Origin: Chiloscyllium plagiosum
Lineage: Eukaryota
Assembly: GCF_004010195.1 (NCBI RefSeq)
Contig: NC_057718.1
Coordinates: 9,091,664-9,129,715 of the forward strand
Length of the DNA stretch: 38,052 nucleotides
Direction: 5' to 3'
In this document: positions 14,260 to 36,290 of the stretch, in pieces
Layout: each line of letters begins with the position of its first letter
Position numbering within the stretch: the first letter of the stretch is position 1
Program-made: the position numbers and the translations under genes
Notes under the pieces: generated by a model
What the model was told of the DNA's origin: nothing
Seen by the model: the letters and a program-made list of their open reading frames with translations, nothing else
The model's database searches: none

Positions 14260-14868
14260 TCTTCATTCTCTCTTTCCCCACCCTTTATACCCCACACTCC
14301 AGATCCTGCTATGATGTGGAGTGCTTCCAGCCATTCACAGTCCCCAATATCATTTATCCAGCTTCCCCTCTCCAGTGCCACTAATAACTCATTGTCAGCC
14401 ACTAACGGTCCTCATTGGCAGCTACTGACTCTCCCAGACTGACTATTACCCATTCACTTCAAGATTAGAGTGGTGCTGGAAAAGCACAGCAGGTCAGGCA
14501 GCATTCGAGGAGCAGGAAAATCGACGTTTCGGGCAAAACGGCGATTTCCCTGCTCCTCGGATGCTGCCTGACCTGCAGTGCTTTTCCAGCACCACTCTAA
14601 TCTTGACTCTAATCTTCAGCATCTGCAGTACCCACTTCCACCCAGTTGATATTACCCATTCATTTGTCTGGCCAACTGCTGTTCTCTCTGTCTGGGCTCT
14701 ACCTCCTCCTATCGTTTACTCCGCCCCCTCTTCAGCACATATTCCAACCATTTCCCAGCCGCAATCAGTTCTGAGGAAGGGTCACTGGACCCAAAACCTT
14801 AACTCTGCTCTCTCTCTACAGATGCTACCATACCTGCTGAGTTTCTCCCAACAATTTCTGATTTTATG
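14260..14868 (+). mobile_element. Penelope-like element 3' terminal region (family C) with a degenerate hammerhead at 14767-14804; split by a hairpin insertion
   Basis: Pyrimidine-rich pLTR ending agtt-ctgagga-a-gggtc actg gaccc-aaaacctt-aact...cagatgctaccatacctgctgagttt. Confidence 0.7.
14460..14649. mobile_element. Penelope-terminus hairpin insertion (family B)
   Basis: About 70-bp inverted arms (caagattagagtggtgctgg.../...ccagcaccactctaatcttg), 44-nt tail, TSD tattacccattca (14444-14456, 14650-14662). Confidence 0.85.
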
Positions 14869-14939
14869 ACTTCCCCCACCCAGAGTTTGTCATCACTTTC
14901 CCTGTTCCATTGTGCAGTCCCAGTACCTCAAGCTTCAAA

Positions 14940-15052
14940 AGAAATGAAGTTGCATTTATATAGTGACTTTCACAATGTCAGGATGATGGACATCGCCTGC
15001 TTTACCTCAACAGCTGCAAAATCAACTCGCAATTAAACACCGTTGTTGTAAT
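14940..15052 (-). mobile_element. Deu-SINE/L2-type 3' tail remnant
   Basis: ttgcatttatatagtgactttcacaat...gttgttgtaat; similar remnant at 21495-21612. Confidence 0.5.
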
Positions 15053-15053
15053 A

Positions 15054-15531
15054 TAGAACATAGAACATAGAAGAATACAGCGCAGTACAGGCCCTTCGGC
15101 CCTCGATGTTGCGCCGATCCAAGCCCACCTAACCTACACTAGCCCACTATCCTCCATATGCCTCGCCAATGCCGGTTTAAATGCCCATAATGAGGGAGAG
15201 TCCACCACTGCTACTGGCAGGGCATTCCATGAACTCACGACTCGCTGAGTAAAGAACCTACCCCTAACATCGGTCCTGTACCTACCTCCCCTTAATTTAA
15301 AGCTATGCCCCCTCGTAATAGCTGACTCCATACGTGGAAAAAGATTCTCACTGTCAACCCTATCTAAACCCCTAATCATCTTGTACACCTCTATCAAGTC
15401 ACCCCTAAACCTTCTTTTCTCCAATGAAAACAACCCCAGGTGCCTCAGCCTTTCCTCATACGATCTTCCTACCATACCAGGCAACATCCTGGTAAACCTC
15501 CTCTGCACCCATTCCAGTGCCTCCACATCCT
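15054..15531 (-). mobile_element. Young CR1 3' fragment, same subfamily as 10864-12782
   Basis: ORF 15134-15565 nearly identical to 12300-12698; (atagaac)n tail. Confidence 0.95.
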
Positions 15532-15696
15532 TCAAAGCAATGGCACTGCAGAAATGATCAGACATAATTTGATGAAAGACATATCGATTTATTTCACAGT
15601 TGTTCCTGTCAAGGTCAGTATCTGTTGCTTAACCCATATCATACTTAAACTCAGTGCTTTGCTGCACCCACCATTTTCAAGATGTTAATAAGAAAA

Positions 15697-15820
15697 TGAT
15701 TTGGAGGTGCCGGTATTGGACTGGGGTGTACAAAGTTAAAAATCACGCGACACCAGGTTATAGTCCAACAGGTTTATTTGGAAGCACTAGGTGTCGGTGC
15801 GCTGCTCCTTCATCAGGTGG
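15697..15820 (-). mobile_element. Penelope terminus family A, single arm, mutated hammerhead
   Basis: tgatttggaggtgccgg...caggtttatttggaagcactag...gctccttcatcaggtg. Confidence 0.8.
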
Positions 15821-16127
15821 AGACAGGGTAGATAAAGATAAACTATTTCCACCAATCGGGGATTCTAGAACGAAGGGGGAGTAGCTGAGGAATTAGAGCC
15901 AGGTCATTCAAGAGAGACCTTTGGAAGCTCTTCTACACTGAAAGGGTGGTAGAGGTTTAGAATTCTCTTCCACAAACGGCAGTGAATGTCAGATAAGCTG
16001 TTAGTTTTGAATCTGAGACACATAATCTTTTGTTAAGCAAAGGTATTTAGTGATATGGGTCGACAGCAGGTATATGGAATAGACTTGAGGGGCTGAATGG
16101 CCTATTCCTATCCCTTCATTCCTATGT
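15821..16127 (+). mobile_element. CR1 3' fragment
   Basis: DRVDKDKLFP..GDSRT motif and 3'UTR gaggggctgaatggcctattcct. Confidence 0.8.
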
Positions 16128-16199
16128 ACCATGGGGAGGTTTGCACCTACATTCCCACATTAGCCTGGAGGACTGCTGGATTACTGCTTGAGTTATCTT

Positions 16200-16600
16200 A
16201 ATGAAAGAACACCAGCAGATGTTGTGAAAAAAGCTTGATGAAGGTCGGAAGCTTTATGAAGCATCTTGGAAGAGGTAGAAGGACGGAGAGGCTGAGGGAG
16301 AGAATTCCGAAGTTCAGCCAGCTGAAGATGGAAATTGGAGAAGCTCAGAAAAACCAGGCTGGCAGGAATTAAATGAACTCAGATTGTCGTAATGATAGAG
16401 GAAGTTACAGGGATAAGGAGGTACTGAGGACATGGAAGAATTGAAACACAGGGATAAGACGTTTAACATTGAGATGTCCTTATGAGAACACCTGTGTAGG
16501 TAAGTGAGCACAAGGTGAATGGATGAATAGGATAAAGTGAGAGTTAAGATTCAGATCAGTTCTGTTTCACTGAGGCTGGAGGTTTCATGGCTAACCAGGT
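16200..16600 (-). mobile_element. Old L2-clade LINE fragment
   Basis: gagggagagaattccg...gaggaagttacagggataagga...gtaggtaagtgagcacaag. Confidence 0.55.
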
Positions 16601-16754
16601 GGGATTGAGCTTCTTGAACTTAATGTTTAATCCATGATGTTCACTCCATTAGGACTTAATATCCTTTCTATAATAAAATAATACTCTTACCTAACCTTTC
16701 CCTTCTTCAAATATTTAATTATCTAGTTCACTTTTATGTTTTAGATACTTCTTA

Positions 16755-16852
16755 ACTAACCTGTTCTTACACACCTCTGGAATACGTGGGACTTAAACCC
16801 AGGCCTCCTGGCTGAGAGAGAGAGAGACACTACAACTGTGACACAAATACCC
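16755..16852 (-). mobile_element. Very short tRNA-derived SINE ('family D')
   Basis: Minus strand tgtgtcacagttgtagtgtctc...cctgggtttaagtcccac...ccagaggtgtgt; homologous to 32325-32442. Confidence 0.6.
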
Positions 16853-17089
16853 TTCAGAGCAATAACCTGGTAATCTGGATTCTTACGCCAGTAATATAAC
16901 CACAAAGCCATTAATTTCCTGGAGCGCTTCCTATGTTTGACCCTCAGCATAAATCCTCAATGTGCCCTGACCGTTGTCAGGTCACACACTCTTGCCTCCA
17001 TATACCTCCACAATGCTCCAATTGCTTACGGTTTCATCCCTTTACAGAATGAGACTGTCACTGCCTGGGCCTGCGGTTAATCCCACTCC

Positions 17090-17420
17090 ACAGCGAGGCA
17101 ATCTCTCGGCGGCCTGTGGCGTCTTTCGGCCCAGCGTGGCTTCAGCGTGGACTTCCTGCCTCAAGGTGATTCAGGCCTGGAGCAGGCTGGAGGCGAGGTG
17201 CTGGTGTGGACTGGGTTGGAAGGACTGCTAACCTGAACTTATGATTTCTCTATCTTTTTAATTTACTCTTACAATCTGTAATGCTGGACTTTTTATTTCT
17301 TTGCTTTTCCAATTTTTTTTCCTGACCTGAAGAATCTGCACCTAGGTACCCTGTATCTAAGATGGGCGCTGTAAGTGGTGACTTGTACACTTTTCAATTT
17401 CAGCACGTGACAATAAAACA
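17090..17420 (+). mobile_element. Unclassified interspersed repeat with a Rex1-like 3' tail
   Basis: GC-rich 5' part, T-rich middle, ends acttttca...cacgtgacaataaa like the 28490-28535 tail. Confidence 0.45.
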
Positions 17421-17529
17421 ATTTCCGTTCCATCTGTCCTTGAGGAGATGATAGTGAGCTGCCCCCACAATACAACAGAGCGTCCCACTGGGCTACAGTA
17501 TTAGGCTTAAAAATGACACCTCCAAAGCA

Positions 17530-17733
17530 TGACTTGGAGGTGCCAGTGTTGGACTGGGCTGGACAAAGTTAAAAATCACACAACACCAGGTATAGTCCAA
17601 CAGATTTATTTGGAAGCACTGGCTTTCAGAATGTTGCTCCTTCACAACCACCTGATGAAGGAGTGGCACTCTGAAAGCTAGCGCTCCCAAATAAACCTGT
17701 TGGACTACAACCTGGTGTTGCGTGAGCTTTAAC
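17530..17733. mobile_element. Penelope-terminus hairpin (family A), plus-strand hammerhead at 17649-17683
   Basis: Inverted arms gttaaaaatcacacaacaccagg.../...cctggtgttgcgtgagctttaac. Confidence 0.85.
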
Positions 17734-17799
17734 CCTAAAGCAGATTGTTAAGGGTCTCATTGTTAATAGTTAACTGACCACAGCAAAAAGTAATTGAAG

Positions 17800-17935
17800 G
17801 AAAATACATAAAAAACAAAAATAGTGTGAACATAGGATGCAGATGCTGGAACCTGTACTGAAAACAATAAATGCTGGAGGTCACGCGGGTCAGACACCAT
17901 CCATGGAGAGAGAGCAAGATAACGTTTCGAGCAGT
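17800..17935 (-). mobile_element. Penelope-terminus fragment (related family)
   Basis: gcagatgctggaacctgtactgaaaac...gagagagcaagataacgtttcga. Confidence 0.55.
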
Positions 17936-18202
17936 AAAAGTAGCCAGTTTTGACTGCAAGGTAACTGCAATGAGTTGGGTTGGGCACACACTGTTTCGTG
18001 TGACACCTGGAGCTGTTATTTGCACAAAGGAATGCTTGGGAAAAGTGCTCAGTGATTGCACTGCAGTGCATAATATTAGATTCTGAATAGTAGTAATAGT
18101 GCGGACCTCCCCCCAGCTCATGAAACCATTGCCGTGGAAACTGAGATAGAGCTCCAAGTGCTGCCCATTACCCTGGAGTCCCCATGGACAGAAGGCATTG
18201 AG

Positions 18203-18342
18203 AGTCATAAGACCATAAAACACAGGAGCAGAAATTAGGCCATTCAGCCCACCGAGTCTACTCTGCCATTCAATCATGGCTGATAAGTTTCTTATCCCCA
18301 TTCTCCCACTTTCTCCCCGTAACCCTTGATCCCTTTGACACT
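18203..18342 (-). mobile_element. CR1 3'UTR fragment
   Basis: cataagaccataa...ggagcagaaattaggccattcagccc; reverse complement of 7055-7192. Confidence 0.85.
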
Positions 18343-18469
18343 TGCCATTTGTTGAATATGCCTCAAGTACTTTAAGCGAATAGATTCACTTCATCTCAAG
18401 TAGATGAAGCCAACACATTTGCTTTATATTGAAGCAAGTGTTTTCCTGTATTAATTTTGATCGAGATCA

Positions 18470-18590
18470 GTAGTCACATGACATCAAGTTATAGTCAAGT
18501 GGCGAAAGGGCCTTGATTGGAGTGTAACCTGGTGTCATGTGACTTCTGACCTTGTCCACCTCAGTCCAACACTGGCACCTCCACATCATT
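18470..18590. mobile_element. Degenerate family A Penelope hairpin
   Basis: gtcacatgacatcaagttatagtc / tgtaacctggtgtcatgtgac plus tail cagtccaacactggcacctcc. Confidence 0.6.
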
Positions 18591-18644
18591 TTGATTGGAG
18601 CTTAAAGGATCTGATTGGCACTTTCAGCCTAACAATGCATGGGC

Positions 18645-18890
18645 CATCCCAGAGTCAATCACATTGCTGTGGGTCTGGAATCATATATAGGCCAGACCAG
18701 GTTGGGTTGGCAGATTTCCTTTCCAAAGGGCATTAGTAAACCAGATGGCTCCTTTACGATAATCTAGTAGTTTTAAAATCATGGTTATTGAAACCAGCTT
18801 TCCCTATCCAGATACGTTCACTGAGCTGAAATCTCCCTGTGATGGGGCTTGAACCCCAGGTCACTAGTCTAGAAACATAAGAACTGTACC
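18645..18890 (-). mobile_element. Degenerate SINE family B
   Basis: agagtcaatcacattgctgtgggtctgga...cattagtaaaccagatgg. Confidence 0.7.
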
Positions 18891-19539
18891 AAATCACACA
18901 GCAGTAAGCCCTCCCTCAGTGACTGCAGGGAATCGGGGCAGAGTGTACCCACTTTCTCATATACAGCTGTGTGCCCATTCTCAGAGCTGGTTAAGATTCC
19001 AGATCATCAGAAGTCATGCGTGGCAACAGTTCACGAACATTTTGACAAACAACGCTCCCAGCAACCTTGTCGTATTGTGATTACAATAACAAATCAGAGA
19101 GCTCTTCGGATGACAGCAGCACAGAGCCAGCAGGACTTTGCACTCAGCACTTCTTCCTGGTTTATTTATAGCAGCTGTTGACAATTTTTTTCCACGTAAA
19201 CAGTGAACATTAAAAGGAGTGATACGAAACAGATGACATCCCCAGTTCGCTCAGACCATGAAGCTTTAAATAACCCCGTGTTTACAATTCATGCTTAGGT
19301 GCGCGCTCGTCATGGGCTGTCGTCGTTTCTGGGGATGTGTTACCTCTAATTTTGTCCACCTCTCCATAAATAAAGTTGGGCTTTTTTCATCAGGTCTGTG
19401 TGCTCCTCATGGAGTTGAGTGATCTTGCTGTGTGATTCCAGTCAGCTTCCAGCACCTTGCCAAAAGGCTGTTTGTCACATAACAACATTACATACTCATG
19501 TTGAGAACTTACTCAACCATACTATCCTGTCCCTCCCTG

Positions 19540-19912
19540 GTGCACTCACACTCTCACACTCAATTACACACCCAGGTACTCACATTCACCCTCACACACT
19601 CACATATTAACACATTCATCCACAAACTCACTCTCATTCACCCTCACACTCACACACATTCACTCACACACACGTACACGCTCACTCATTCACATATTCA
19701 CACTCACTCACTGACTCATATTCACACACTCACACTCACTCACATCCATATACACTCACTCATCTTCACTCTCTCTCTCACTCACTCTCACTCACACTCA
19801 CTCTCACACTCATTCACACTCACATTCACATACTCACACTCAGATTGTCACACACACACTTGATCACACACACTCACTTGATCACACACATACTCACAAA
19901 CATATGAACACA
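19540..19912. repeat. Compound (CA)/(CACT)n microsatellite
   Basis: cactcacactctcacac... low-complexity tract. Confidence 0.92.
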
Positions 19913-20843
19913 GAGTCATAGAGTCACAGAACACGTGAACAAGGAACAAAGGTAGGCCATTCGGCCCTTCGAGCCTGCTCCCCCAATCAATAAGTTCGAG
20001 GCTGATAGATTTTAACCTCAAGTCTATATTCCTGCATCTCCCCGGTAATGTTTCATCACCCTTGATAACCAAGAATCTATCTCCCTCTGCCTTAAAAACA
20101 TTAAAGGATTCTACATGTACTGCCATTTGAGGAAGGGAATTCCAAAGACTTACAACCGTCTGAGAGAAATATCATTTCTCTCATCTCTGTCTTGAATGGG
20201 CGCACCTGTTTTTTTTTAAACTGTAAGCCCTAGTTCTGGATTGTCCCACTAGTGGATCCATCCTTTCCACAACCACATCCGTTCCATTCCCCTCAGGGTC
20301 TATATCTTTCACTTAAGTCACCTTTGACTATTCTTAACTCCAGAGGATACAGGCCTCGCTTGTCCAACCTTTCCTCAGAAAGCAATCCATTCATTCCAGG
20401 TATTAATCCAACAAGCCTTCTCTGAATTGCAAACAAATGTATTAACATCCTCCTGTAAGTACCGTAACCTGTACCATACTCCGTAATCCAGATGCAGTCT
20501 CACCAATACTCTGTATAATTGAAGCATAACATCCATGATCTTACATTTGATTCCCCTCACAATTAACAGAATGATCTATTAGTTTTCCTGATTACTTGCT
20601 GTCCCTGAAGATTAACCCTCTGTGATTCATGTACTAGGACACCCAGATCCCCCTGCGTCTGAGAGTTCCACAACCTTTCATCATTTGAATAATATACTTT
20701 TTTATTCTTTCTGTCAAAATGGACCATTTCATGTTCCCCCACATTGTAACCTATGTGCCAGATCTTTGCCCATTCACTTATCCTATGTATATCCCTTTGG
20801 AGGCACCTTATGTCCTCCTCACAGCTCACTTTCCTACCTCGCA
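19912..20843 (-). mobile_element. Old CR1 3' fragment
   Basis: Minus-strand ORFs LQRDIHRISEWAKIW, LVRLHLDYGVWY; (agagtcat) tail. Confidence 0.88.
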
Positions 20844-20899
20844 TTGTTTCGTAGTTACCGGCTCATCAATGGTATAGATAAAATTCTATGAAATAAATC

Positions 20900-21417
20900 A
20901 ACCCCAGGGCCTCCAAAAGCTATCAACCAGATACAAGTTAGGAGTATAATGTAATGCTGGATGAGTGCAGTTCCAATAAGATCGCAAGAAGCTCAACACC
21001 ATCCAGTGAAAGGCCAGTTCAATTGACACTCCACCCATCAATTTAAACATTCACTCCCTCCAACACTAACACAAGGTGGTAGCAAGATGTACCATCTGGA
21101 AAATGCAGTGGAGGAAGTCGCCAAAGTTTATTAGACAGCACGTTCCAACCCTGCAACCTCTCCCACCTAGAGGGACAATGGCAGCAAATTCACAGGAGTA
21201 CCACCATCTGCAAATTTCTTTCCAAGTCAAACATTGTAGCTGGGTCAAAATCCAGGAACTCCCTTTCCAGTGGAACTATGGGTATACCTACTGCCCATGG
21301 TTTGCCATGGTTTAAGATGGCAGCTCATGACCACCTTCTGAAGGGCAATTAGGAATGGCAATAAATGCTGTCCAGTTAATGACAGCCACTTTTTCACAAA
21401 TGAATTTGTTAAAAATG
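20900..21417 (+). mobile_element. LINE 3' fragment, putative partner of SINE family B
   Basis: Decayed ORF end (CTIWKMQ..., WVKIQELP) and tail gggcaattaggaatggcaataaatgct. Confidence 0.7.
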
Positions 21418-21612
21418 AAATAAGAAATATTAAAGAAATATACTTTTCGCCCACACAACTGGGTCTCTTGCATGACGCATTGCATTGATAAATAGAAAGG
21501 AATGACTTTTCATTTATACATCATCTGTCACAATCTCAAGAAGTCCAAATGGGCTTCACAACCAATGAAGCTGGTTTATTTGAAAATAATTTTTCGCTGT
21601 TATTAAGTATAT

Positions 21613-21965
21613 GGAGTCGTGATGACCTGGTTGCATTATCACCAGGCAATTAGTCCAGAGACCTAGGTAATGTTCTGGGTATCCAGGTTTGAATCCTGCC
21701 ATGGTAGATGGTGGAATTTGAAGTCAACATAAATCTGGAATTAAGAGTCGAATGATACCACGAGTGGATTGTCAGGGAAAGGCCCATCTGGGTCATTAAT
21801 GTCCTTTAGGAAAGGAAACTGCCATCCTCACCTGATCTGGCCTACATGTAACTCCAGATGTGACTGCAGACCCACAGCATTGTGGTTGACTCTTAACTGC
21901 CCTCTTGTCAATTAGGGATGGGCAATAAATGCTGGGCCTAGCCAGCGATACTCTCATCCCGTGAC
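21613..21965 (+). mobile_element. SINE family B
   Basis: Head with ggtttgaatcc box B; body and tail match the other copies. Confidence 0.85.
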
Positions 21966-22788
21966 TTCTATTTGGAATCCACATCTTAATATGATTCAGT
22001 ACCTCCAGGGGCACTAGAATAGACAGGGGTTAAAAAACAAAAACAGGTTTTTCAGAGAAAAGAAGAAACAAGTTACTACGGTGTCATTTTTCCTCCTTGT
22101 TACCTTTTAAAATTTGATCTGTTTGTTGGCACTGCTACTGTGATTATTTAGATTGCAAAACACCAACACAGAGCAAAAGCTCAGAAACCATGGAAACCGG
22201 CCTACTGCTTTTAGGTTCCAGTTAGCTAGAGCCCTCAGCTTGGCCGAGCTGTACCTGTCAAGGAAACTAGTTTCTCCTTGTGCTAATTGTTGCACGTACC
22301 GAGTGATTTTTTTTTCTCTCTCCTCTCGCTGTGTGATTTATTAAATCACAATTAGAATGTCATTAATATCTGCTCACTGATTAACAAAATGCCTTACCAA
22401 ACAGCTGCTTTAATTAAATCAAACAATTACCATTTAAATATTCCAAAATAATCTTGATGAACATCCTTTTTACCCAGACTAATGAAATATGTCCTTGAGA
22501 TGACATCGGTGGCAGATACACAATCAGTTTTATTCTTCATTCCCGAGACAATGTGTGAATCATTTACATGAGTTCCCATGGACAGCTATCAGAGTTCATA
22601 CTGCAAATCATACCCAACGTTTTGCTTCCTCATCTGAAAGTACTGACTGATGTCAGGTTATGTTTCCAGGGGACACTTCACCCGCCCAACGTCCAATGCC
22701 GACAAATACCATTGTTCATGTGGAACCCTGGGCATTAAGTTAAAAATCACACAACACCAGGTTATAGTCCAACAGGTTTATTTGGAAG

Positions 22789-22823
22789 CACTAGCTTTCG
22801 GAGTGCTGCCCCTTCATCAGGTG
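22789..22823 (-). ncRNA. Minimal type-I hammerhead ribozyme motif
   Basis: CAC-CUGAUGA-A-GGGG cagca CUCC-GAA-AGCU-A-GUG. Confidence 0.65.
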
Positions 22824-22844
22824 ATTGTGGAATTACTCCACAAC

Positions 22845-22879
22845 TACCTGATGAAGGAGCAGTGCTCCGAAAGCTAGTG
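22845..22879 (+). ncRNA. Minimal type-I hammerhead ribozyme motif
   Basis: UAC-CUGAUGA-A-GGAGC agu GCUCC-GAA-AGCU-A-GUG. Confidence 0.7.
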
Positions 22880-23009
22880 CTTCCAAATAAACCTGTTGGA
22901 CTATAACTTGGTGTTGTGCGATTTTTAACTTTGTACACCCAAGTCCAAAACCAGCACCTCCAAATCCTGGGCATGAAGAGTTAGTTATTTAAGTGTGTCG
23001 CATCTTTGG

Positions 23010-23215
23010 TGATTTAGGTCCTGCGTTTTGGAATTTGTTCCTAAACCACTGCCTCACTTTCCTTTGTTACAATCCCTCTTGAATCCTAACTGTTTGACCA
23101 AGATTTTAGGTAGCAAGCCTAAGGTCTTTAATGTCTTATTTTTCTGTCTGTTGGTGATCCTGTGTTAGAACAACCCTAGCATATAGCATTGCCACATTAT
23201 AAAAGAGATGTACAG
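23010..23215 (+). mobile_element. L2 3' end remnant
   Basis: ttggaatttgttcctaaacc...tttgaccaagatttt... Confidence 0.5.
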
Positions 23216-23229
23216 TTATGGGTGCAGAG

Positions 23230-23660: not shown

Positions 23661-23786
23661 GTTGGGGGGCAAGTTTGTGATCAGGAGCAGGCTGTTTTCA
23701 TGCAGTGCATTAATGAGACATGTATAGGTCACCTCAACTCTGAGGAGGCCATTTACTGACTGACTGAGGCGTTGCACGAGCAATGT

Positions 23787-23974: not shown

Positions 23975-24248
23975 ACAACCTCACCTTTTTTTTTAATATA
24001 CTGATAAAACCTTGAGTTATCTCAGGGCTGTGACTTGAAAGAAGTTCTGGGATTTACATATTAATAAATTAAAACCTGCAACCCCATTCTAAGTGATTAA
24101 AGACTTAACAGCAATCTAGGCTTGTTCAATACATCGCATCATTTGTACGACACTATGATCTTTCGCCATACATTCCATGCCCTGTGATCCTGCCCCACTA
24201 GCTACCTGATGAAGGAGCAGCACTCTGAAAGCTTGTACTTCCAGATAA
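23975..24248 (+). mobile_element. Penelope family A pLTR arm with a hammerhead at 24203-24237
   Basis: Reverse complement of 25013-25250; UAC-CUGAUGA-A-GGAG cagca CUCU-GAA-AGCU-U-GUA. Confidence 0.8.
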
Positions 24249-24924: not shown

Positions 24925-25632
24925 TGATTTGGAGGAAGCGGTATTGGACTGAGGTGGACAAAGTTAAAAATCACACAACACCAGGTTATAGTCCAACAGG
25001 TTTATTTGGAAGCACTAGCTTTCAAAGCGCTGCTCCTTCATCAGGTGATTGTGAAGTAGGTCCATAAGACATAGAATTTATAGCAAAAGGTTACAGAGTC
25101 ATGCGGCTGAAATGACATATTGAACAAACCTAGATTAAGTCATTCATCTTTCAGAATGGGTTTGCTAGTTTTGGTTCTTTAATAGGTAAATCCTAGAACT
25201 TCTTTTAAATGACATTCTCAAGATAACTTAAGGTTTTGTAATAAAAGGTGTCATCTCAGCTCAGATAATGCATTAAAGGCTTGAGGTTAAAGTCTGTCTG
25301 TATCCCAGTCTTGAGTCAGACTGGTTCTATTGCTAAAGTGGGATTTACAAAATCTTACATGGACTGACTGCCTGCAGGTTATGCATTTTTTGAGCAAAAT
25401 AGAATGTATGTGCAAATATTTTCTGCAAAATTTTTGCATTTTATCATTCTAAAAGATGAAAGACTTAACAATCTAGGTTTGTTCAATGTATCATTGCATC
25501 ATTGTAATTGTTTGCTATAAATTCTGTGTCTTATGATCCTGTCCACAGCCACCTGATGAAGAAGCAGCGTTCTGAAAGCTAGTGCTTCCAAATAAACCTG
25601 TTGGATTATAACCTGGTGTTGTGTGATTTTTA
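24925..25632. mobile_element. Large asymmetric inverted Penelope pLTR pair (family A); hammerheads at 25013-25047 (-) and 25550-25584 (+)
   Basis: About 500-bp left arm and 190-bp inverted right arm. Confidence 0.85.
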
Positions 25633-25678
25633 ATGATGAGGGAGATCAGACTTGGAGGAGGTGCATGTAGAATGCAGC

Positions 25679-25817
25679 AGAACTGAGGAAGGGTTGCTGG
25701 ATTGAAACATTAACTTTGATTCCTCTTCACAGATGCTGCCAGACCGGCTGAGCTTTTCCAGCAACTTCTGTTTTTATTTCTGATTCACATCATTTGCAGT
25801 TCTGTCGGTTTTTATTC
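25679..25817 (+). mobile_element. Penelope terminus family C inserted in a CR1 tail
   Basis: ctgaggaagggttgctggattgaaacattaact...; TSD agaatgcagc (25669-25678, 25818-25827). Confidence 0.75.
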
Positions 25818-27362: not shown

Positions 27363-27570
27363 AAAATAAAACAAAAAACTGTGCATACTGGAGATCTAAA
27401 ACAAAAACAGAAATTGTTGGAGAAGCTCAACAGGTCTGGCAGCATCTATGGAGAGAGAAACAGAGTTAACATTTCAAATCCAGAGACCCTTCTTCATCAG
27501 AAACATTGACTCTGTTTTCTTCCCACACATGTTGCCAGACCTGCTGAGTTTTGCCAGTAATTCTTCCTCC
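27363..27570. mobile_element. Penelope-terminus hairpin (family C)
   Basis: caggtctggcagcatct...cagagttaacatttc / gaaacattgactctg...tgttgccagacctg. Confidence 0.75.
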
Positions 27571-27869
27571 CTGTCACTGATGTCCATGCAGCTAGACTTC
27601 TGAGGGAGATTCAAACAGTCTTTGTAGAGTTTTCTTCAAACACACTGGATATTGGAGCGTTGATAAACAGGATTGGGGTGGGGGAGTATAGAAAGAGACA
27701 CTTGGCGAATGCATTCAGATATCAGCACGATCAGGTGAGCATACTCTCAGTGGAATGCTAATGGAGCTGGCTTCAAGACAGACACTGAGATTTGCTCAGT
27801 AGTCCTTCCAGTCAATCTAGAGAAGATGGCAGAGGCTTGCTAGCAAAATGCATCTTCTGTCTCACACAG

Positions 27870-28535
27870 TCACTGCCCCCCTACACATTAACAGCACAGA
27901 GGTGGAACGGGTGGAGAGTGTCAAGCTCCTGGGAGTGGTCATCCACAACAAGCTTTCTTGGACTCTTCATGTGGATGCACTGGTTACAAAGACCCAACAA
28001 TGTCTCTTTTCTTCAGGCAGCTGAGGAAATTTGGCATGACGGTGAATACCCTTGCCAACTTTTATACGTGCACCATCAAGAGCATTCTGTCTGGATGTAT
28101 CACTGCCTGGTATGGCAACTGTTCAAGATCGGAGATGGTCACAGAGAGTGGTAAACTCGGCCTGGCCAATCACAAAGGCCAACTTCCCATTTATAGAATC
28201 CATCTACCAGGCCCACTGTCAAGGAAAGGCCGCCAGCATTCTCAAAGATCCATCCCACCCTGGCAATGTTTTTCTACAACCTCTACCATCGGGGAGAAGG
28301 TACAGAAGCCTGAACACACGCACCGGCCGGTTTTGAAACAGTTTCTACCCTACTGTTGTTAGAATACTGAATGGATTCACAAACTCTTAACAATCGCCTG
28401 TACCTGTGTTTTGTTTTTGGCGCTGTTTACCTATTATTTACTATCTATGCTACTTAACTCTGTGATCTGCCTGTATTACTCGCAAGACAAAGCTTTTCAC
28501 TGTGCCTCAGTACATGTGACTATAAATTCAATTCA
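27870..28535 (+). mobile_element. Rex1/Babar-clade LINE 3' fragment
   Basis: RQLRKFG..LANFYTCTIKSILSGCITAWYGNCS; ILKDPSHPG..LQPLPSGRRYRS; tail tgtgactataaattcaattca. Confidence 0.8.
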
Positions 28536-28771
28536 GGAATGAGCTACTGTTGCTGATCCTAGTGTTAGATTGCCCTCATTAGTGAAATAGGGAGCTGCCA
28601 ATGTATCTTGGCACTGCTCAATGTTCAGCTTTTTTGGAAGAGTCTTTCCTTCAAAATCACTGGGAGGTGAAATATTTCACGGGAGCTTCTCAATCATAAC
28701 CACTTCCTGTGAATTTTTGCCTCATATCATGTTTGGTTCGTCAGTCAATTGGCACCTGGGGGAAGCTACAA

Positions 28772-29580
28772 CACAAAGGGAGTTTAATTTAGATAAACGT
28801 TAGGTGCTGCATTTTGGGAAAGCAAATCTTAGCAGGACTTATACACTTAATCATAAGGTCCTAGGGAGTGTTGTTGAACAAAGAGACCTTGGAGTGCAGG
28901 TTCATAGCTCCTTGAAAGTGGAGTCGCATGGTAATAGGATAGTGAAGAAGGCATTTGGTATGTTTTCCTTTCTCAGTCAGGGTATTGAGTACAAGAGTTG
29001 GGAGGGCATTGGCTAGGCCACTGTTGGAATATTGCATGCAGTTCTGGTATCCTTCTTATCGGAAAGATGTTTTGAAACTTGAAAGAATTCAGAAAAGATT
29101 TACAAGGATGTTGCCAGGGTTGGAGAATTTGAGCTCTGGGGAGAGGTTGAATAGGCTGAGGCTGTTTTCCCTGGAGCGTTGGAGGCTGAGGGGTGACCTT
29201 ATAGAGGTTTATAAAATCATGAGGGGCATGGATAGGATAAATAGACAAAGTATTTTCCCTGGGAGAGGGAGTCCAGAACTAGCAGGCATAGGTTTAGGGC
29301 GAGAAGGGAAAGATATAAAAGAGACCTAAGGGGCAACGTTTTCACACAGAGTGTGGTGCATATGTGGAATGAGCTGCCAGAGGAAGTGGTGGAGGCTAGT
29401 ACAATTACAGCATTTAGAAGGCATCTGAATGGGCATATGAATAGAAAGGGTTTGGAGGGATATGGGTCGGGTGCTGGCAAGTGGGACAAGATTGGGTTGG
29501 GATATCTGGTTAGCATGGACGGGTTGGACCAAAGGGTCTGTTTCCATGCTGTACATCTCTATGATTCTATGACTCTATGA
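28772..29580 (+). mobile_element. CR1/HER1-like LINE 3' fragment
   Basis: RDLGVQVHSSLKV, LEYCMQFWYPSYRKD, WNELPEEVV; (ctatga)n tail. Confidence 0.93.
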
Positions 29581-29882
29581 TTGTGCATGCCCAATGGATG
29601 CAGTAGATGGACACCAACCAAGTGCCCCCTTCTCGATGAATGAGATGAAACAGTGCACTTCCAGTAGTGAATGCTGTTGGATTATTCGATGCCTAATTGA
29701 ACCAGGAAGCTCCATGGTCAACCCTGTTCATAATTGTCCAGCTGAAAGACAAGGCTGGAACATCTACACTAATCTTCAACCAGAAATGCTGAGTGGATGA
29801 CCTATCCTGATCTCCCCTGACAACAGCCACTGGCACAAATGTCAGTCTTTGGTCATTTTTGAACCACTCCACATGTGGGAAT

Positions 29883-30705
29883 TGTGACGAACTGTGGCCT
29901 TAAGAAATGTATTTTGTTCTTTTCTTTTAAAAGAGATATTGAACAAAAGGCGACAAGCAATCTATAAGAAAGTAAGCAGCTTGTGAGGCCTTGGAGGTGT
30001 TTTAAAAGTTGGAACAATAGGAGCAGCCTGACTGGGTGTGGTTGAGCTCCCAAATAACCAAGGTTTTTGGTTAGCTTTGAGCTGTTGAGGTCTGGAAGAA
30101 GTGAAAGCTATTTTGTGCTCTCTCAGTTCCATCCAAAAGTTGAGGATTCTCTGCCTGTTAAGAGAGTTTCATGTCAGACAATCTGTGTCTAAATTTGCCT
30201 TTTGCCGGGAGTGTGTTTTTGGGACATTAATATTGGAACGTTTAATCAGTATTTTGTGACTGTATCTATTATGCTGTCAAGTTTTCTAATAGAGTTAAGT
30301 TGTTTCAATCCCTTCTTTCTTTGGTTAGTGTTTTTACTATAGTGGACAAAGTGTGTTTTACTTTAAATCTGGTAGTTTGACCAATTGAATTGCATCTGGA
30401 ACACAACACATTACAGAATGCTCTGCCCCAGAAGGCAGTGGAGGCCCAGTCTCTGGATTCATTTAAGAAAGAGTTGGATAGAGCTCTCAAGGACAGCGGA
30501 ATCAAGGGTTATGGAAATAAGGCAGGAACAGGATACTGATTGAGGATGATCGCCATGATCATATTGAATGGTGATGCAGGCTCGAAGGGCAGAAAGACCT
30601 ACTCCTGCACCTATTGTCTATTGTCTATTTACCTTTAAAATAAGAAACTTTAGGGTCTAGACTATCTTCTGGATATTTTGAGGAGGTTTGGTCTGGTCCA
30701 TAGCA
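29883..30705 (+). mobile_element. Solo LTR carrying a CR1 3' insertion
   Basis: Termini TGTGACG...CATAGCA, flanked by gaat/gagt (4-bp TSD with 1 mismatch). Confidence 0.7.
30415..30629 (+). mobile_element. Young CR1 3' end nested in the solo LTR
   Basis: gaatgctctgccccagaaggcagtggagg...(ctattgt)n. Confidence 0.85.
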
Positions 30706-30739
30706 GAGTGGGAAGTTGAGTTTCAGGCTAGGCCAGACA

Positions 30740-30843
30740 GGAGAACTGAAACAGAAGTTGCTGGAAAAGCTCAGTGGGTCTGGCAGCACCTGTGAAGAGT
30801 GAACAGAGTTAATGTTTCGGGTGTAATGACCCTTGCTCAGAAA
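30740..30843 (-). mobile_element. Penelope terminus family C, degenerate hammerhead
   Basis: cagaagttgctggaaaagctcag...agttaatgtttcgggtgtaatgacccttgctcagaa. Confidence 0.7.
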
Positions 30844-31418
30844 GGAGGGTATTGACTAAAACCAAACCTATCACATGACACCATTTCCCATCCGAAATAC
30901 CTGTCACCTTCACACCCATCTTCGCTGGTTTATGTCTTGGTTCCCAATTTTCAACTGCAAAGAAGTAAAAATCATCATTAACAGGCTTTTCATGCTTTCT
31001 TTGCATTTATGTTAAGGTCGGTTTAACGAGCAGGACCAGCATTTATTGGCCATCCCTAACTGCCCTTGAAGTGGTGGTGGTGGTGGTTCCAACCTTGAAT
31101 AAGGCTGAGTGTCTCGCAAGGCCACTCCAGAAATCCGTTCCGATTAAGTGGGTCTTTCTCTTTATGTATTTTATCACGGGGTGTGGACATCGCTGACAAG
31201 GCCACAGTTTGCGGCCCAGTTGCCCTTGAACTGGGCGGCTTGCAGAACTATTGCAGAATTAACACTCAGACGTGTTGCCGGGGTTTGGGAGCACACTGAC
31301 AAAAAAAGGGCAGACTTACTTCCCTAAAAGGAGACGTCATGTGCAGGTGTTGGACTGGGATGGGCAAAGTCAGAAGTCACACAACACCAGGTTATAGTCC
31401 GGCAGGTTTATTGGAAAT

Positions 31419-31453
31419 CACAAGCTTTCGGAGCGCTGCTCCTTCATCAGGTG
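31419..31453 (-). ncRNA. Minimal type-I hammerhead ribozyme motif
   Basis: CAC-CUGAUGA-A-GGAGC agc GCUCC-GAA-AGCU-U-GUG. Confidence 0.72.
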
Positions 31454-31563
31454 CAGTGTGAGAGGGCATATCAGCATGGAGTTTTAGGTTTGTTCATTCC
31501 ACTTACATCCATTGTATGATCCCGCTGCCTATAAACTCTGCATCGGTGTGCCTTCTCTCACTG

Positions 31564-31598
31564 TACCTGATGAAGGAGCAGCGCTCCGAAAGCTTGTG
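31564..31598 (+). ncRNA. Minimal type-I hammerhead ribozyme motif
   Basis: UAC-CUGAUGA-A-GGAGC agc GCUCC-GAA-AGCU-U-GUG. Confidence 0.72.
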
Positions 31599-31721
31599 AT
31601 TTCCAATAAACCTGTTAGACTATAACCCGGTGTCATGTGATTTTTCACTTTCTGTAAAAGGAGAAGGTAAACCAGAGGAATTTGCATGACAATCCAGTAC
31701 GTTCAGAGCCACTATCATTGT

Positions 31722-32030
31722 TTAGATTAGATTACTTACAGTGTGGAAACAGGCCCTTCGGCCCAACAAGTCCACACTGACCCGCTGAAGAGCAACCCAC
31801 CCAGACCCACTCCCCTACACCTAACACTACGGGCAATTTAGCATGGCCAATTCACCTAACCTGCACATTTTTTTGGACTGTGGGAGGAAACCAGAGCATC
31901 CGGAGGAAACACATGCAGACACAGGGAGAATGTGCACACTCCACACAGACAGTTACCTGAGGTGGGAATTGAACCCAGGTCTCTGGCACTGTAAGGCAGC
32001 AGTGCTAACCACTGTGCCATCGTGCCACCC
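31722..32030 (-). mobile_element. HE1-type V-SINE, full length
   Basis: tRNA head, V-domain and (tctaa)n tail. Confidence 0.9.
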
Positions 32031-32324
32031 AAATTATTCCAAATCTATTTACTCAATAGTATTCAAATTCCTCAACCACCATGATGAGATCACCGGGCCT
32101 GGAACAAAAGTACTCTCGACCACTGTTCCTTCTAACGTGCGTTTCCCAACATTGTCCCACCTCACCCCACTGTTCGGGGAAAGCCCTCAGAGGCAAGGCA
32201 TTTACTAAACATTTCGGAGACAGCATTTGCAACTGAAAGGCAGAAAGAACAGGATGGGATCTGCACCATTTGAAACTCAGTAGTGGGTTAAGCCGATTGC
32301 CAAAGCTGTGCCCAGTCTCAGTCA

Positions 32325-32442
32325 GTGCTTTTGTGGCACAGTGGTAGTGTCCCTACCTTTGGATCGGGTGGTGCTGGTTTCAGTTCCCACCTCCTCTGGA
32401 GGTGTGTCGTGACATCTCTGAACAGGTTGCTGAGAAAATATC
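32325..32442 (+). mobile_element. Short tRNA-derived SINE family D
   Basis: tgtggcacagtggtagtgtccctacc...gaggtgtgtc...tgaacaggttg. Confidence 0.6.
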
Positions 32443-33330
32443 TGGGAAGAGAGTTGTAGTCTTTGGGAAGCCACATTAGTGATGGGTCTGATGAAGCAGT
32501 GGATTATTTTTCTCTAATTTTCAGATGGGAGGAAGTTTTGACTCAAACCAGGAAAGACGGCCTCAGCAGTACATTTGAAAATGGATCAGTGTCACCGATC
32601 CCCTTTGGGGATGGACATCGATGGGCACAGACAGAGCTGTGCCATTCAGATGGAAGAATGGATAAGAATGGGTGTCAGAAATCTGATTGTGATTTCTCAG
32701 GCGATGCTGGAGAAAACTGTGTTTTAAGACAAGACATTTCTGGAGATGAACTGGCTTCCCAGCAACTGCCGTCAGTGACAAGGGGCAAGGGGATGCTGGA
32801 GGAGGGGAGTGCTGTCCTCGCTAAACACCCCACTGAGATCTGAGACGGTGGGAGGGAATAATGCGTTGTTTTCTCATTCTGTGAACCCCAGTCCTACAGC
32901 AATTGGAATCATCCAGCTCAGTGCTTGTGGAAAAATGGGAGTTCCCTGTTGTTCCAAATTCTGGCCAATACACTCACCAGCCGACCCACCGGAGGAGCTG
33001 ATTGCAAACAAACGTTTGAAATTTATGAGGCTGGTCCTTTGCCAGTGTAAATAGTGCAGCAAATTCATTAATTAATGGCAAAAAGGGCACACTGACCTTG
33101 CACGAAGGTATAGAGAGAAACAACATGTTCCTTTTCTTTCTACTTATTGCACTTCTGCGTCAGCTACTGAAGACCATTTCTCTTCAGTGTTGGTGGCCCT
33201 GCACCTTTCGTAATGAGAGATCGATTCACAATGACCCTTCGCTTTTGAGTGTGAAAGTTTGTAACTGAATGGCACAAACACTGCACTCATTATCCAGCAC
33301 TCCACTCCCTTTGAATGTTCAAAACAAGGA

Positions 33331-33660
33331 TTTTTTTTTTAAAAATCCATTCACAGAATGTGGGCAATGTTGGCTATGCCACCATTTATTGCCCATCCCT
33401 AATTGCCCAGAGGCTAGTTGAGAGTCAACCAATTGCTGTGGGTCTGGAGTCACATGACAGTTTCCTTCCCAAAAGGACAGTAGTGAACCAGATGGATTTT
33501 TCCTGACAATCAGCAATGGATTTATGGTCCATTGGATCCTTTATTCCAAATGTTTTATTGAATTCAATTCATGGCAGGATTTGAGCCCAGGTCCCCAGAA
33601 CATTACCTGTGTTGCTAGATTAACAATCCAACAACAATACCACTAGGTTATCACCTCCCC
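33331..33660 (-). mobile_element. SINE family B
   Basis: Homologous to 2657-3000. Confidence 0.85.
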
Positions 33661-34174
33661 TTGAAATCTATCCTTCTCCAGATGTCTCCCCTTCCTTGGT
33701 GGCCACCCTCAACACTCTTGACCCACCCACTGCCTCGGTACCATGAGGTTGCTCGTTCAACATCCAGTCACAGAAGCATGCAGCAGAGAAGAGACCCTTC
33801 AGCCCATCGGGTTCACACCAGCAGCCCTGGATCAGCCACCATTTCCACCATTGAAGAGATGGGGAAACCAATTAGCCATCATTTTCTGTCAGGTGTGGTT
33901 AAATGGTTCTGAGTGGTGCCTCTATGCCATGTCCATTTCTGATGTGAATCCAGGCCATCAGTGTCAGTAGCCACAAACTGATCTTATTCAAAAGCCTAAG
34001 ATGTGAGAGGTGCCCTAACCAGACAAGAGAAGACAATCCAACCAGTATTCTGCACTGGATCATTAAACAGGTCAGTTCTCATCATATGTTTCCCCATGAC
34101 GACCAATGGCATTGTTTTCTGAGATCAGAATACCTTGTGTGCAGTAATGTAGCAAATGGTCAACCTCCTAGTTT

Positions 34175-34335
34175 GTTTTACTCTTGTATGGATGTCACTG
34201 GCAAGGCAGCCATTTGTCATTCATCCCTCATTGTCCATGAACAGGGCGGCTGTCCGGCTATTTCAGGGGGCACAGAAGAGTCAATCACATGACCACGGTC
34301 TGGAAACACCAGGAGGACAAACTGGGTAAGGACAG
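34175..34335 (-). mobile_element. SINE family B tail fragment
   Basis: gatgtcactggcaaggcagccattt...agagtcaatcacat. Confidence 0.55.
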
Positions 34336-34404
34336 CCCTGGGATGGAGCACCCCAGCTGTGAAGAGAGGCTGGGTAAGGTTGGGGCAGGGAAGGATAGGG
34401 CAGG

Positions 34405-34875
34405 GGGGGAGCTGTTTGAGGGCTAGAAGATTATCGGGGGCATGTTCAGGGGTGAATAGAAAGCAGTTGTCACCCTTAGTCAAAGGGTCAATAACAAGGC
34501 GGGAGTGGTGGATAAGTTTAAAGTGAAAGGAAGGAGGTTGAGAGGGAGGAAAGACTTTTAAACCCAGAGAGAGTTGGGAGTCTCAGAATGCACTACCTGG
34601 GAGGGTAGTTGAGGCAAGAAACCAAACAGCCTTAAAAGAGTACTTGGATGAATGTTCAAGGCTATGAGTCAAGTGAGGGAAAATGGGTCTAGTGTCGGTA
34701 GAAATATATATTATGATTCTATGAATTCTGTCTGCTAATAGGACAATCCCACCCATCCAATCTCCATAATGTTCAAGGACGTGGGCTTACTCCAGAAAAG
34801 TAGTAGGTAGAAGTATATTTTTGGCAGCAATGACTTGATGGACCGAAAGGCCTCGTCCATACTGCATGGTTTGAT
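34405..34875 (+). mobile_element. Old CR1 3' fragment
   Basis: gggtcaataacaagg...aagtttaaagtga...gaatgcactacctggg...gatggaccgaaaggcct. Confidence 0.65.
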
Positions 34876-35219
34876 GTGTCTAAGGAAAATGAGATGGGTC
34901 CTTACGACAATAGACAGCAGTTACATAGCCACCTTTAGACCAACTTTTAATTGAACCTTGTTTTATTGAAGTCAGCTCTCACTAACTGCCATGATGGGAG
35001 TCCAAACCCATATCCAGTGATCCATTAGCCCAGTGCTGTGAACGCTAGCCTAGTGACATTGGCACTCTGCCACCACTTCTCCTTGACCGAGGCAGTTCCC
35101 ATGGCTCTAGATTCCCCAGCCAGGGGAAACATCCAATCAACATCCACCCCCTTCCATTGAAGGCAGCTCAGAGATGCTTCACCAGCACCATCCCTGGTCT
35201 TACGAAGAAAGGCTAAACA

Positions 35220-35518
35220 GGGACGGCATGGTGGCTCAGTGGTTAGCACTGCTGCCTCACAGTGCCAGGGACCCAGGTTCAATGTCTGTGTGGAGTTTGC
35301 AAATTCTCCCCGCGTCTGTGTGGGTTTCCTTCGGGTGCTCCGGTTTCCTCCCACAGTCCACAGATGTGCAGAGCAGGTGAATTGGCCACGCTAAATTGCC
35401 CATAGTGTTAGGTGCATTAGTCAGAGGGATTGGGTCTGGGTGGGTTACTCTTCGAAGGGTCGGTGTGGACTTGTTGGGCCAAAGGGCCTGTTTCCACACT
35501 GTAGGGAAATCTAATCTA
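35220..35518 (+). mobile_element. HE1-type V-SINE
   Basis: ggtggctcagtggttagcactgctgcctcacag...aatctaatct. Confidence 0.92.
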
Positions 35519-35651
35519 GGTTGGGACTCTACCCACCGGAGTTTAGAAGGAGAGGTGATCTCATTGAAATACAAAAGATTCTTAAGGGGCTTGACAGAGG
35601 AAATGCTGAGAGGGTGTTCCCCTCAAGGGAGATTCTAGGTCTAGGATAAAG

Positions 35652-35978
35652 CGTTGCTGAGAGAGTGGTGCTGGAAAGACACAGCAGGGCAGGCAGCATC
35701 CGAGGAGCAGGAGAGTCGACGTTTCGGGCATAAGCCCTTCATCAGACAAATGGGAGGTGGGTGGGGCTAGAGGGAAGGTAGCTGGAGAGCGCGATAGACA
35801 GATGGAGGTAGAAGTGAAGGTGATAGGTTGGAGAGGAGGGAGGAGCGAATAGGTGGGAAGGAAGCTGGACAGGTAGGACCATTCAGTAGGCTGGTGCTGA
35901 GTTGGTAGGTAGGATCTGGGATAAGGTGGAGAGAGGGGAACTGAGGAAACTGGTAAAATCCACATTGATCACTTTCTC
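35652..35978 (-). mobile_element. Penelope 3' terminus family B with a hammerhead core at 35715-35747
   Basis: Minus strand CUGAUGA-A-GGGC uuau GCCC-GAA-ACGU-C; possible TSD ctaggataaag/ctagaataaag. Confidence 0.8.
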
Positions 35979-36190
35979 CTAGAATAAAGGAAAGCCAATT
36001 TAAGACTGAGATGAAGAGGAATTTCTTCTGTCAGAGAGTGGTCCGTCTTTGGAACTCCTTACCACAGAGAGCTCTGCAGGCAGAGTCTTTGGGTATATTT
36101 AAGGCTGAGATAGAGAGATTCTGGATCTTCAATCGGCATCAGGAAATCAGAGGTTATGGGGAATGGACAGGAAGGTGGGTGTGAGGAATG

Positions 36191-36290
36191 AGTTAAAAAT
36201 CATGCAACACCAGATTATAGGCCAACAGGTTTATTTGGAAGTACAAGCTTTCAGAGCGCTGCTCCATCATCAGGTAGCTGGTATCAGTCA
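36191..36290 (-). mobile_element. 100-bp family A Penelope terminus, hammerhead at 36242-36276
   Basis: 13-bp TSD ggtgtgaggaatg (36178-36190, 36291-36303). Confidence 0.85.

Follow-up and report, generated by a model that had tools for sequence, protein, structure and literature searches.

Probable Penelope-type minimal hammerhead motifs in four repeat families, one of them non-coding, of the Chiloscyllium plagiosum genome

We consider a repeat-rich stretch of 38,052 nucleotides from Chiloscyllium plagiosum (contig NC_057718.1, positions 9,091,664 to 9,129,715; G000:C9:9091664-9129715 in a 3.56-Gb assembly of 101,977 contigs), called the window below, for which an earlier note had proposed a dense set of hammerhead ribozyme motifs. 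The window has a G+C content of 39-49% and one run of N at 11718-11966. Its motifs are quite probably minimal type-I hammerheads of the kind found in Penelope-like elements (PLEs), and they belong to families A, B and C of the four families that we find in this genome. Families B and C make up the pLTR, or 3' repeat, of coding PLEs. In family A we have instead a non-coding element, 625 nt or more in length, that does not form the end of a coding Penelope and is most likely, from the form of its insertions, a non-autonomous element copied by the PLE machinery in trans. Minimal PLE hammerheads with their dimer logic are already known, and so are inverted arms and a tail on one side only; what is new is that this genome has four families, that one of these is a non-coding rider, and that they reach such a scale.

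All 15 places given in the earlier note were inspected on both strands and parsed by a custom hammerhead descriptor, and a covariance model (R1) was trained on eight family A copies from outside the window. Each of the 15 places bears the motif or a decayed copy of it, and the cut positions predicted after 31595 (in the plus copy of the pair 31341-31651) and after 22876 follow from the motif. The observation of the earlier note is confirmed; it missed two family B pairs (14467-14598 and 6376-6456) and the family C arm at 27500-27564. The loose core CTGANGA-N14-GAA gives ten matches in the window against 0.43 expected, and none of 100 shuffles reaches ten. The strict descriptor, scanned over 249,177 non-N bases, gives 36 matches, and none in the reversed sequence or in any of five local shuffles used as controls. 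R1 recovers all ten family A sites in the window with E-values from 3.6e-16 to 3.8e-10; its next match is a truncated inverted arm at 17614-17660 (E 0.0064). R1 is specific to family A and no general detector of minimal hammerheads, and it reports no family B or C site in the window at E <= 10.

The motif has the same build in all four families: CUGANGA, a bulged base, GAA, A15.1/U16.1 and H17. The marks published for the Penelope type (PMC4209133) are found, namely the unpaired base between A9 and 10.1, the G10.1-C11.1 pair and the palindromic 15.2-16.2, and they support the reading of the earlier note. The extra base after A9 is present in 35 of the 36 strict matches (A in 34, U in one), the exception being the damaged copy at 25553. 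Helix II opens with G-C (10.1-11.1) in most of the 36, and with a G.U wobble in a few A and B copies, such as 25044-, 24206+ and 36273-. Helix III is a 4-nt palindrome (15.1-15.2-16.2-16.1) for which pairing is possible only between two copies. The catalytic core, A15.1/U16.1 and a non-G at position 17 are intact in nine of the ten family A copies and in the family B copy of the window; none of its family C copies has this whole set intact. A helix I of 3 bp is formed in eight of the ten family A copies.

The stems differ between the families while the pairing and the core are kept, and to this extent the covariation described in the earlier note holds. Helix II reads GGAGC/GCUCC in A, GGGC/GCCC in B, GGGUC/GACCC in C and GCUACC/GGUAAC in a fourth type, its fourth pair being G-C, C-G, U-A and A-U respectively. 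AGCU serves as the palindrome in A, and ACGU in the three others; helix I is CAC/GUG in A, AUUC paired with GAAU or GAUU in B, and AGUU/AACU in C. These cross-family pair states are taken from the descriptor parse; a MAFFT alignment across the families sets family B one column out of register. The fourth type lies at L019:1919-1960 (G000:C9:82700725-82700758), 419 nt past a match to the GIY-YIG endonuclease, and at 16 other places; all 17 copies have a C.A mismatch in helix II, with U as the bulge and ACGU or ACAU as the palindrome.

The family A copies in the window, with their hammerheads, are as follows.

15698..15822, minus strand: single arm with tail; hammerhead 15782-15822, GAA changed to GAC and the core broken.
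17528..17733: head-to-head pair; minus arm 17528-17644 (with tail), plus arm 17640-17733 (short end).
22740..22967: complete insertion unit; inverted arm 22740-22831 (minus), direct arm 22830-22967 (plus); hammerheads 22786-22826 (minus) and 22842-22882 (plus).
24004..24248, plus strand: long-form fragment; hammerhead 24200-24240, helix I UAC/GUA.
24926..25633: head-to-head pair of long forms; minus arm 24926-25429, plus arm 25445-25633; hammerheads 25010-25050 (minus) and 25547-25587 (plus, helix II damaged).
31341..31651: head-to-head pair; minus arm 31341-31452 (with most of the tail), plus arm 31564-31651 (short end); hammerheads 31416-31456 (minus) and 31561-31601 (plus), both identical to the exact pattern counted in the genome.
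36191..36280, minus strand: single arm, short end; hammerhead 36239-36279, bulge U and not A, helix I UAC/GUA.

Seven of these ten copies have every part of the motif, namely the core, the bulge, 4-5 bp of helix II, GAA, AGCU, H and a 3-bp helix I; their core C lies at 22820-, 22848+, 24206+, 25044-, 31450-, 31567+ and 36273-. In all seven the core reads CUGAUGA, there is one extra base, the palindrome is AGCU, and position 17 is A or U. Damage is seen in the remaining three: helix I is down to 1 bp at 17652+, helix II has three transitions at 25553+ and fits only without the bulge, and GAC stands in place of GAA at 15818-. The switch of helix I to UAC/GUA, placed by the earlier note at 24203 and 36242, is present at both sites, and a U.G intermediate is seen at 22848 and 31567.

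The inserts of families A and B are built alike, with a 5'-truncated arm standing head to head with a second arm, so that the outer ends are the 3' ends, and with an extra tail on exactly one arm (35 nt in B; 38 nt in A, in four of the four family A pairs in the window). In the unit at 22740-22967 the inverted arm stops at the short 3' end, the direct arm bears the 38-nt tail, and the whole is flanked by an 11-bp target duplication with one mismatch (22729-22739 / 22968-22978). Duplications of similar length flank the inserts at L003 (14 of 14 bp) and L005 (11 of 12), and those of the family B pairs in L025, L041 and L042, judged by eye, measure 12-14 bp. The remaining pairs vary in how far their arms extend. 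About 46-49 nt upstream of the core are present in each arm of 31341-31651. In 24926-25633 the tail is on the minus arm, which keeps 373 nt before the core, and the plus arm has the short end and 103 nt, with a TATAAAT box at -37 to -31 of both cores. In 17528-17733 the minus arm begins 5 nt inside the core, and the hammerhead at 17646-17686 (plus) has a broken helix I. The fragment 24004-24248 keeps 184 nt upstream of the core and ends 43 nt beyond the core start. Head-to-tail pairs are absent from the window in every family, and all close pairs there are head to head. In the first 23 Mb of the contig G000:C1, exact family A motifs are frequently paired, one minus and one plus, at a distance of about 45 nt; several pairs are 1.1-1.2 kb apart (2452780/2453965, 12812779/12813932 and 14217257/14218367), a spacing that would fit two long forms head to head.

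An inverted 5'-truncated copy together with a 30-40-bp tail at one end is described as the signature of PLE insertion (PMC8557442). For a PLE protein of Anolis, PMC11167929 reports two adjacent start sites of reverse transcription in the RNA, and the cutting and extension of both DNA strands in vitro. If reverse transcription is primed on each of the two cut DNA strands and starts at two sites in the RNA, head-to-head arms would result, and such two-strand priming would fit the 35-38-nt tail on one arm and the target duplications of 11-14 bp. The density of the motif is explained by its position. The hammerhead starts 82-90 nt from the short 3' end of elements whose copying begins at the 3' end and mostly stops early, and an insert longer than about 120 nt nearly always keeps the motif.

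We turn to families B and C, whose copies in the window are the following.

6376..6456: family B head-to-head pair; both arms reduced to the terminal ~40 nt, no hammerhead remaining.
14467..14598: family B head-to-head pair; arms begin 12 and 21 nt inside the hammerhead, neither motif complete.
14771..14867, plus strand: family C arm; GGGUC/GACCC and AGUU/AACU, with G12 changed to A and the palindrome decayed.
25673..25813, plus strand: family C arm; decayed hammerhead, helix II broken and ACGU changed to ACAU.
27399..27564: family C head-to-head pair; minus arm 27399-27496 (decayed hammerhead), plus arm 27500-27564.
30749..30818, minus strand: family C arm; decayed hammerhead, G8 changed to C and ACGU to ACAU.
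35625..35765, minus strand: family B arm (PLE 3' module); hammerhead 35712-35751, core C at 35745.

The family B hammerhead at 35745- is perfect from the core to position 17 (GGGC/GCCC, ACGU-C); its homology to other copies begins at the core, the 5' strand of helix I is gone and 1 bp is left. The cores of the family C copies lie at 14771+, 25683+, about 27495- and about 30818-, and all of them are degenerate, as the earlier note stated. They are old, CpG-decayed members of their family, since the undecayed family C motif that we infer occurs 282 times in the genome.

The arms of family B are tied to the coding elements by their position. A GIY-YIG profile search of the genome gave 47 matches, and 30 loci were fetched; in 19 of the 30 a family B arm lies on the same strand 53-672 nt downstream of the GIY-YIG match, where about two are expected from the background density. 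A diverged B-type motif is found at locus L018 and the fourth hammerhead type at L019. At L043, a frame of 429 aa with YIDD, a reverse transcriptase motif, and GIY-YIG (25.6 bits, cut-off 22.6) ends 155 nt before a family B hammerhead, and 4,284 nt upstream, on that strand too, stands a second, decayed family B arm. The two arms, at 9075 and 4791, are both on the minus strand and lie around the remains of an open reading frame (ORF); L043 has the pLTR-ORF-pLTR arrangement. Longer relatives of the frame number 36 (759-1058 aa); in P0004, one of these, RVT_1 (291-479) precedes GIY-YIG (708-751), as is canonical for PLEs. Reverse transcriptase (RT) with a C-terminal GIY-YIG is found for family B only, through the L043 frame and its relatives; most RT stretches in the fetched loci read N, and a complete PLE ORF of this genome is not among them. 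The long open frames beside the GIY-YIG matches turned out to be runs of N. Downstream of the hammerhead, family C agrees with B over the entire arm, the box GATGCTGCC...CTGCTG and the tail included. The link of the arms to Penelope ORFs, which the earlier note had expected, thus holds for family B and reaches family C by homology. Endonuclease-bearing PLEs are reported almost only from animals in the account of PMC8557442.

For family A the same expectation is not borne out, as no RT or endonuclease frame is found within 3.1 kb upstream of two long copies. A family A unit begins about 13 nt ahead of the core and extends 120 nt from the core start, with a short 3' end at +81/82 and a long 3' end 38 nt beyond. 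The longer copies extend 79, 103, 184, 209, 224, 373 and 505 nt upstream, a series of 5' truncations in which the -505 boundary is seen in two copies, and this upstream part is non-coding and CA-rich. A TATAAAT box lies at -37 to -31, about 30 nt before the hammerhead, and AAUAAA follows the hammerhead. Both arms of the unit 22740-22967 reach about -12/-13. Because of this arm end and the position of the box, a transcription start near -12/-13 would fit family A. We place family A with the elements copied by the PLE machinery because its insertion anatomy matches the published PLE signature.

The genome counts are of exact pattern matches, for which a backward control pattern gives zero in each of the four families. 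They amount to 13,708 for A, 79,576 for B, 282 for C (counted as CUGANGA-A-GGGUC-N4-GACCC-GAA-ACGU-U-AAC) and 17 for the fourth type, a total of 93,583 or one per 38 kb, and four of them fall in the window (22848, 31450, 31567 and 35745). The forecast that the genome holds very many copies was right in order of magnitude. For background we sampled eight arbitrary 10-kb stretches (73,974 non-N bases); six small stretches were also taken from the genome. The 73,974 bases contain 11 B arms, one A arm and one C arm with the whole hammerhead region, of which four pass the strict descriptor. This gives one arm per 5.7 kb in arbitrary sequence, compared with about one per 2.4 kb in the window, where family A is unusually frequent. 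Scaled to the whole genome, the 13 arms counted in 74 kb would mean about 6e5 arms with a hammerhead, a rough figure for which the Poisson range is about 3e5 to 1e6. The ten family A hammerheads of the window come from seven insertion events, as compared with one hammerhead in 74 kb of arbitrary sequence, and its exact family A motifs number three against 0.15 expected. PLEs are said to insert into or beside older copies (PMC6765202), and insertion of this kind may be the cause of the cluster.

The next question is whether these motifs could be explained in another way, and several observations do weigh against reading them as PLE hammerheads with a role in cleavage. No Rfam hammerhead family (clan CL00010) matches the window at the gathering threshold. 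This failure of the Rfam models would suit a chance resemblance amplified by repeats and without meaning at the RNA level, as would the facts that each family is only one or a few evolutionary samples and that most copies are neutral, decaying leftovers. The covariation within family A is also less than the earlier note supposed: at the pair 2.3/1.3 the genome has C..G in 12,546 copies (by subtraction), U..G in 705, C..A in 234 and U..A in 223, against about 31 U..A expected were both sites independent, but most U..A rows come from a single lineage, with AGY loops and in many cases U at 17. The UAC/GUA change therefore stands for few events, and the U..A class is a compensated founder later multiplied, not the product of many independent events. 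A chance resemblance nevertheless has to account for the full design in four separate families with different stems, for a descriptor that finds nothing in reversed or shuffled sequence, for backward patterns at 0 against 93,583 and for a place within the element that is the one published for PLEs (PMC4209133, PMC8557442); we give it next to no credence. Family A alone could be unrelated to PLEs, either a short interspersed nuclear element (SINE) moved by a long interspersed nuclear element (LINE) or a foldback or miniature inverted-repeat (MITE) DNA transposon, with a hammerhead-like string by chance. Its tie to PLEs consists of the insertion anatomy and a weak match in the tail, where A and B share just one 12-nt word, at the same place, whose score is reached by 2-10 of 300 shuffles and which is a weak hint. 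A family A arm is found in just two of the 30 GIY-YIG loci, at no fixed distance, and gives no link to an ORF; this, the RT or endonuclease frame not found upstream of the two long copies, and the foldback look of head-to-head arms would all agree with such an origin. It is hard to reconcile, however, with the want of a poly(A) or simple-repeat 3' end in family A, with unequal arms whose inner ends range from +5 to -505, with a 38-nt tail on exactly one arm as in B (35 nt) and in published PLEs (PMC8557442, PMC11167929), with target duplications of 11-14 bp that differ in sequence, and with a hammerhead-to-3'-end layout as in B in which the 12-nt tail word keeps its place. We consider this origin very improbable, and retain copying by PLE proteins as the better account of family A.

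Whether the motifs cleave is a separate matter. The RNA of the source elements may self-cut after H17, as a dimer formed through the AGCU or ACGU palindrome and probably aided by the element protein, but we would put this and its opposite on an equal footing, and the chance that cleavage matters in the element life cycle is likewise about even. Our caution comes from the weak helix I, the unfavoured dimer fold, the absence of a pile of RNA ends and the published doubts. Helix I of family A is just 3 bp; that of family B has 2 contiguous bp in 25 of 50 arms and 3-5 bp in only four of the 50, the commonest state (AUUC/GAUU, 21 of 50 arms) being 2 bp followed by a U.U mismatch. The fold with a double hammerhead has -13.7 or -6.7 kcal/mol in family A, where the lowest fold has -23.5 or -26.2, and -14.3 or -15.3 in family B, where the lowest has -19.5 or -24.1. 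In one poly(A) single-cell RNA run (X12), a library ill suited to the purpose and hence a weak test, there is no predicted site where many molecules start or end. For the Anolis element, PMC11167929 reports that hammerhead mutants insert normally in vitro, that no reads end at the cut site and that cleavage required the protein, and PMC8557442 describes Penelope-like clades without hammerheads that proliferate well. The missing pile of RNA ends, the unfavoured dimer fold, the weak helix I of family B, the normal insertion of the Anolis mutants and the need for the protein would also be expected if a hammerhead-like module were kept for a use other than cleavage, as a handle bound by the RT and endonuclease or as a promoter or 5' leader, with cutting rare or irrelevant in vivo; the hammerhead lies at most about 13 nt from the commonest 5' ends and, in family A, about 30 nt after TATAAAT. 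On the other side, the core, the bulge, G10.1-C11.1, the palindrome and a non-G at 17 are all kept in four families with differing stems, which protein binding alone can hardly fit, and minimal PLE hammerheads are reported to cut as dimers in vitro, if slowly (PMC4209133; PMC6765202). We hold a use without cleavage to be unlikely. As for the copies in the window, they are very probably all dead leftovers without a role for the host.

We compare these families with known systems, beginning with the minimal hammerheads of metazoan PLEs (Cervera and De la Pena 2014, PMC4209133). As described there, the motif is of the same type I with almost no helix III, several families with compensatory changes occur in one genome, most copies are single and truncated, close pairs lie on opposite strands, and the motifs stand in repeats adjoining an ORF with RT and GIY-YIG. 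Our 93,583 exact matches may be set against the about 4,000 motifs of the coelacanth and about 9,000 of Xenopus given there, although the counting methods differ, and helix I, given as 4-5 bp in that account, is shorter here, with 3 bp in A and 2-4 bp in B. Poseidon PAc of Anolis carolinensis (Frangieh et al. 2024, PMC11167929) has the same two alternative 3' ends 30-40 bp apart, and the hammerhead lies in the pLTR in both; PAc cuts and extends both DNA strands, which fits the head-to-head arms seen here. The ORF of PAc begins inside the hammerhead, whereas at L043 the upstream ORF stops 155 nt before the hammerhead, and many family B copies read CUGAAGA, without an AUG. The PLE insertions of Craig, Yushenova, Rodriguez and Arkhipova (2021, PMC8557442) have the same 5' truncation, inverted copy, 30-40-bp tail at one end and hammerhead in the pLTR, but the clades treated in that source are mostly without hammerheads, whereas the elements here bear them together with a C-terminal GIY-YIG.

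Animal non-LTR retrozymes have reportedly been regarded, by Cervera and De la Pena in 2020, as non-autonomous PLE derivatives. That non-coding elements with hammerheads derive from PLE repeats is also proposed for animal retrozymes in a preprint of 2026 (Li, Clavereau and Pollet), so this idea is not new with family A. Like family A, the retrozymes of that preprint are non-coding, bear a hammerhead, are related to PLE repeats and depend on PLE proteins; dispersed monomers are common among them, and one cartilaginous fish is among the vertebrates from which they are reported. They differ from family A in being head-to-tail tandems able to give circular RNA, whereas the family A copies in the window are single or head to head, and in having a canonical type I hammerhead and not a minimal one. 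Sm-alpha and Sj-alpha of Schistosoma (PMC6765202) are likewise short non-coding retroposons of very high copy number in which the promoter is followed directly by the hammerhead. Their hammerheads are described as canonical and the elements as SINE-like; family A has the tail, the inverted arm and no A-rich 3' end.

This copy number exceeds by an order of magnitude those of the vertebrates first singled out as remarkable. Family B, which is coding, and family A, its non-coding rider, have the same layout and different stems, and such a pair is suited by nature to testing whether copying needs the hammerhead. There is also a warning for annotation, as junction hairpins mimic microRNAs and family A poly(A) sites may mislead the annotation of genes and small RNAs.

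Such sites are seen in RNA: 345 raw reads of the run X12 enter poly(A) right after 22906, which is 15 nt past the AATAAA of the family A arm and 30 nt past the predicted cut, although these reads may stem from any copy at least 90% alike. Because they run into poly(A) at this point, family A arms supply polyadenylation sites that are used. One may speculate further that family A is self-promoted and Penelope-dependent, and that its module of hammerhead and AAUAAA now serves widely as a 3'-end signal of transcripts, which we think improbable. Were it true, a self-cutting motif 29 nt before a poly(A) site could strip the tails from thousands of RNAs and would be a genome-wide ribozyme switch on RNA stability, not mere junk. 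Other repeats of the window also appear in the RNA reads, with about 1,280 reads having poly(T) before 31721-31736 and 231 having poly(A) after 28535; these are other abundant repeats that end in or donate poly(A) sites. The read depth peaks at 28592-29879, 31168-32455 and 35032-35675.

Rfam gives weak microRNA-type matches in the window (mir-558 at 42 bits, mir-2131, bantam, mir-305 and MIR161), all far below threshold, at 6381-6451, 14494-14571, 17605-17690, 22799-22869 and 31435-31579. These are the hairpins formed at the head-to-head junctions of the inverted A and B arms and not microRNA genes; the mir-2131-type match comes from the family B pair 14467-14598 and the mir-558-type match from the family B pair 6376-6456. 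The sole hammerhead row of an Rfam scan of the window in E-value mode is a match to Hammerhead_HH10 at 30054-30145 (plus), which we reject, as it has 25.9 bits against a threshold of 75 and a broken core (CUGUUGAG) and is unrelated to the three families. Two overlapping frames at 4830-5665 (plus), outside the span of the motifs of the earlier note, match RVT_1 with E-values of 5e-4 and 1e-15 and belong to a decayed retroelement.

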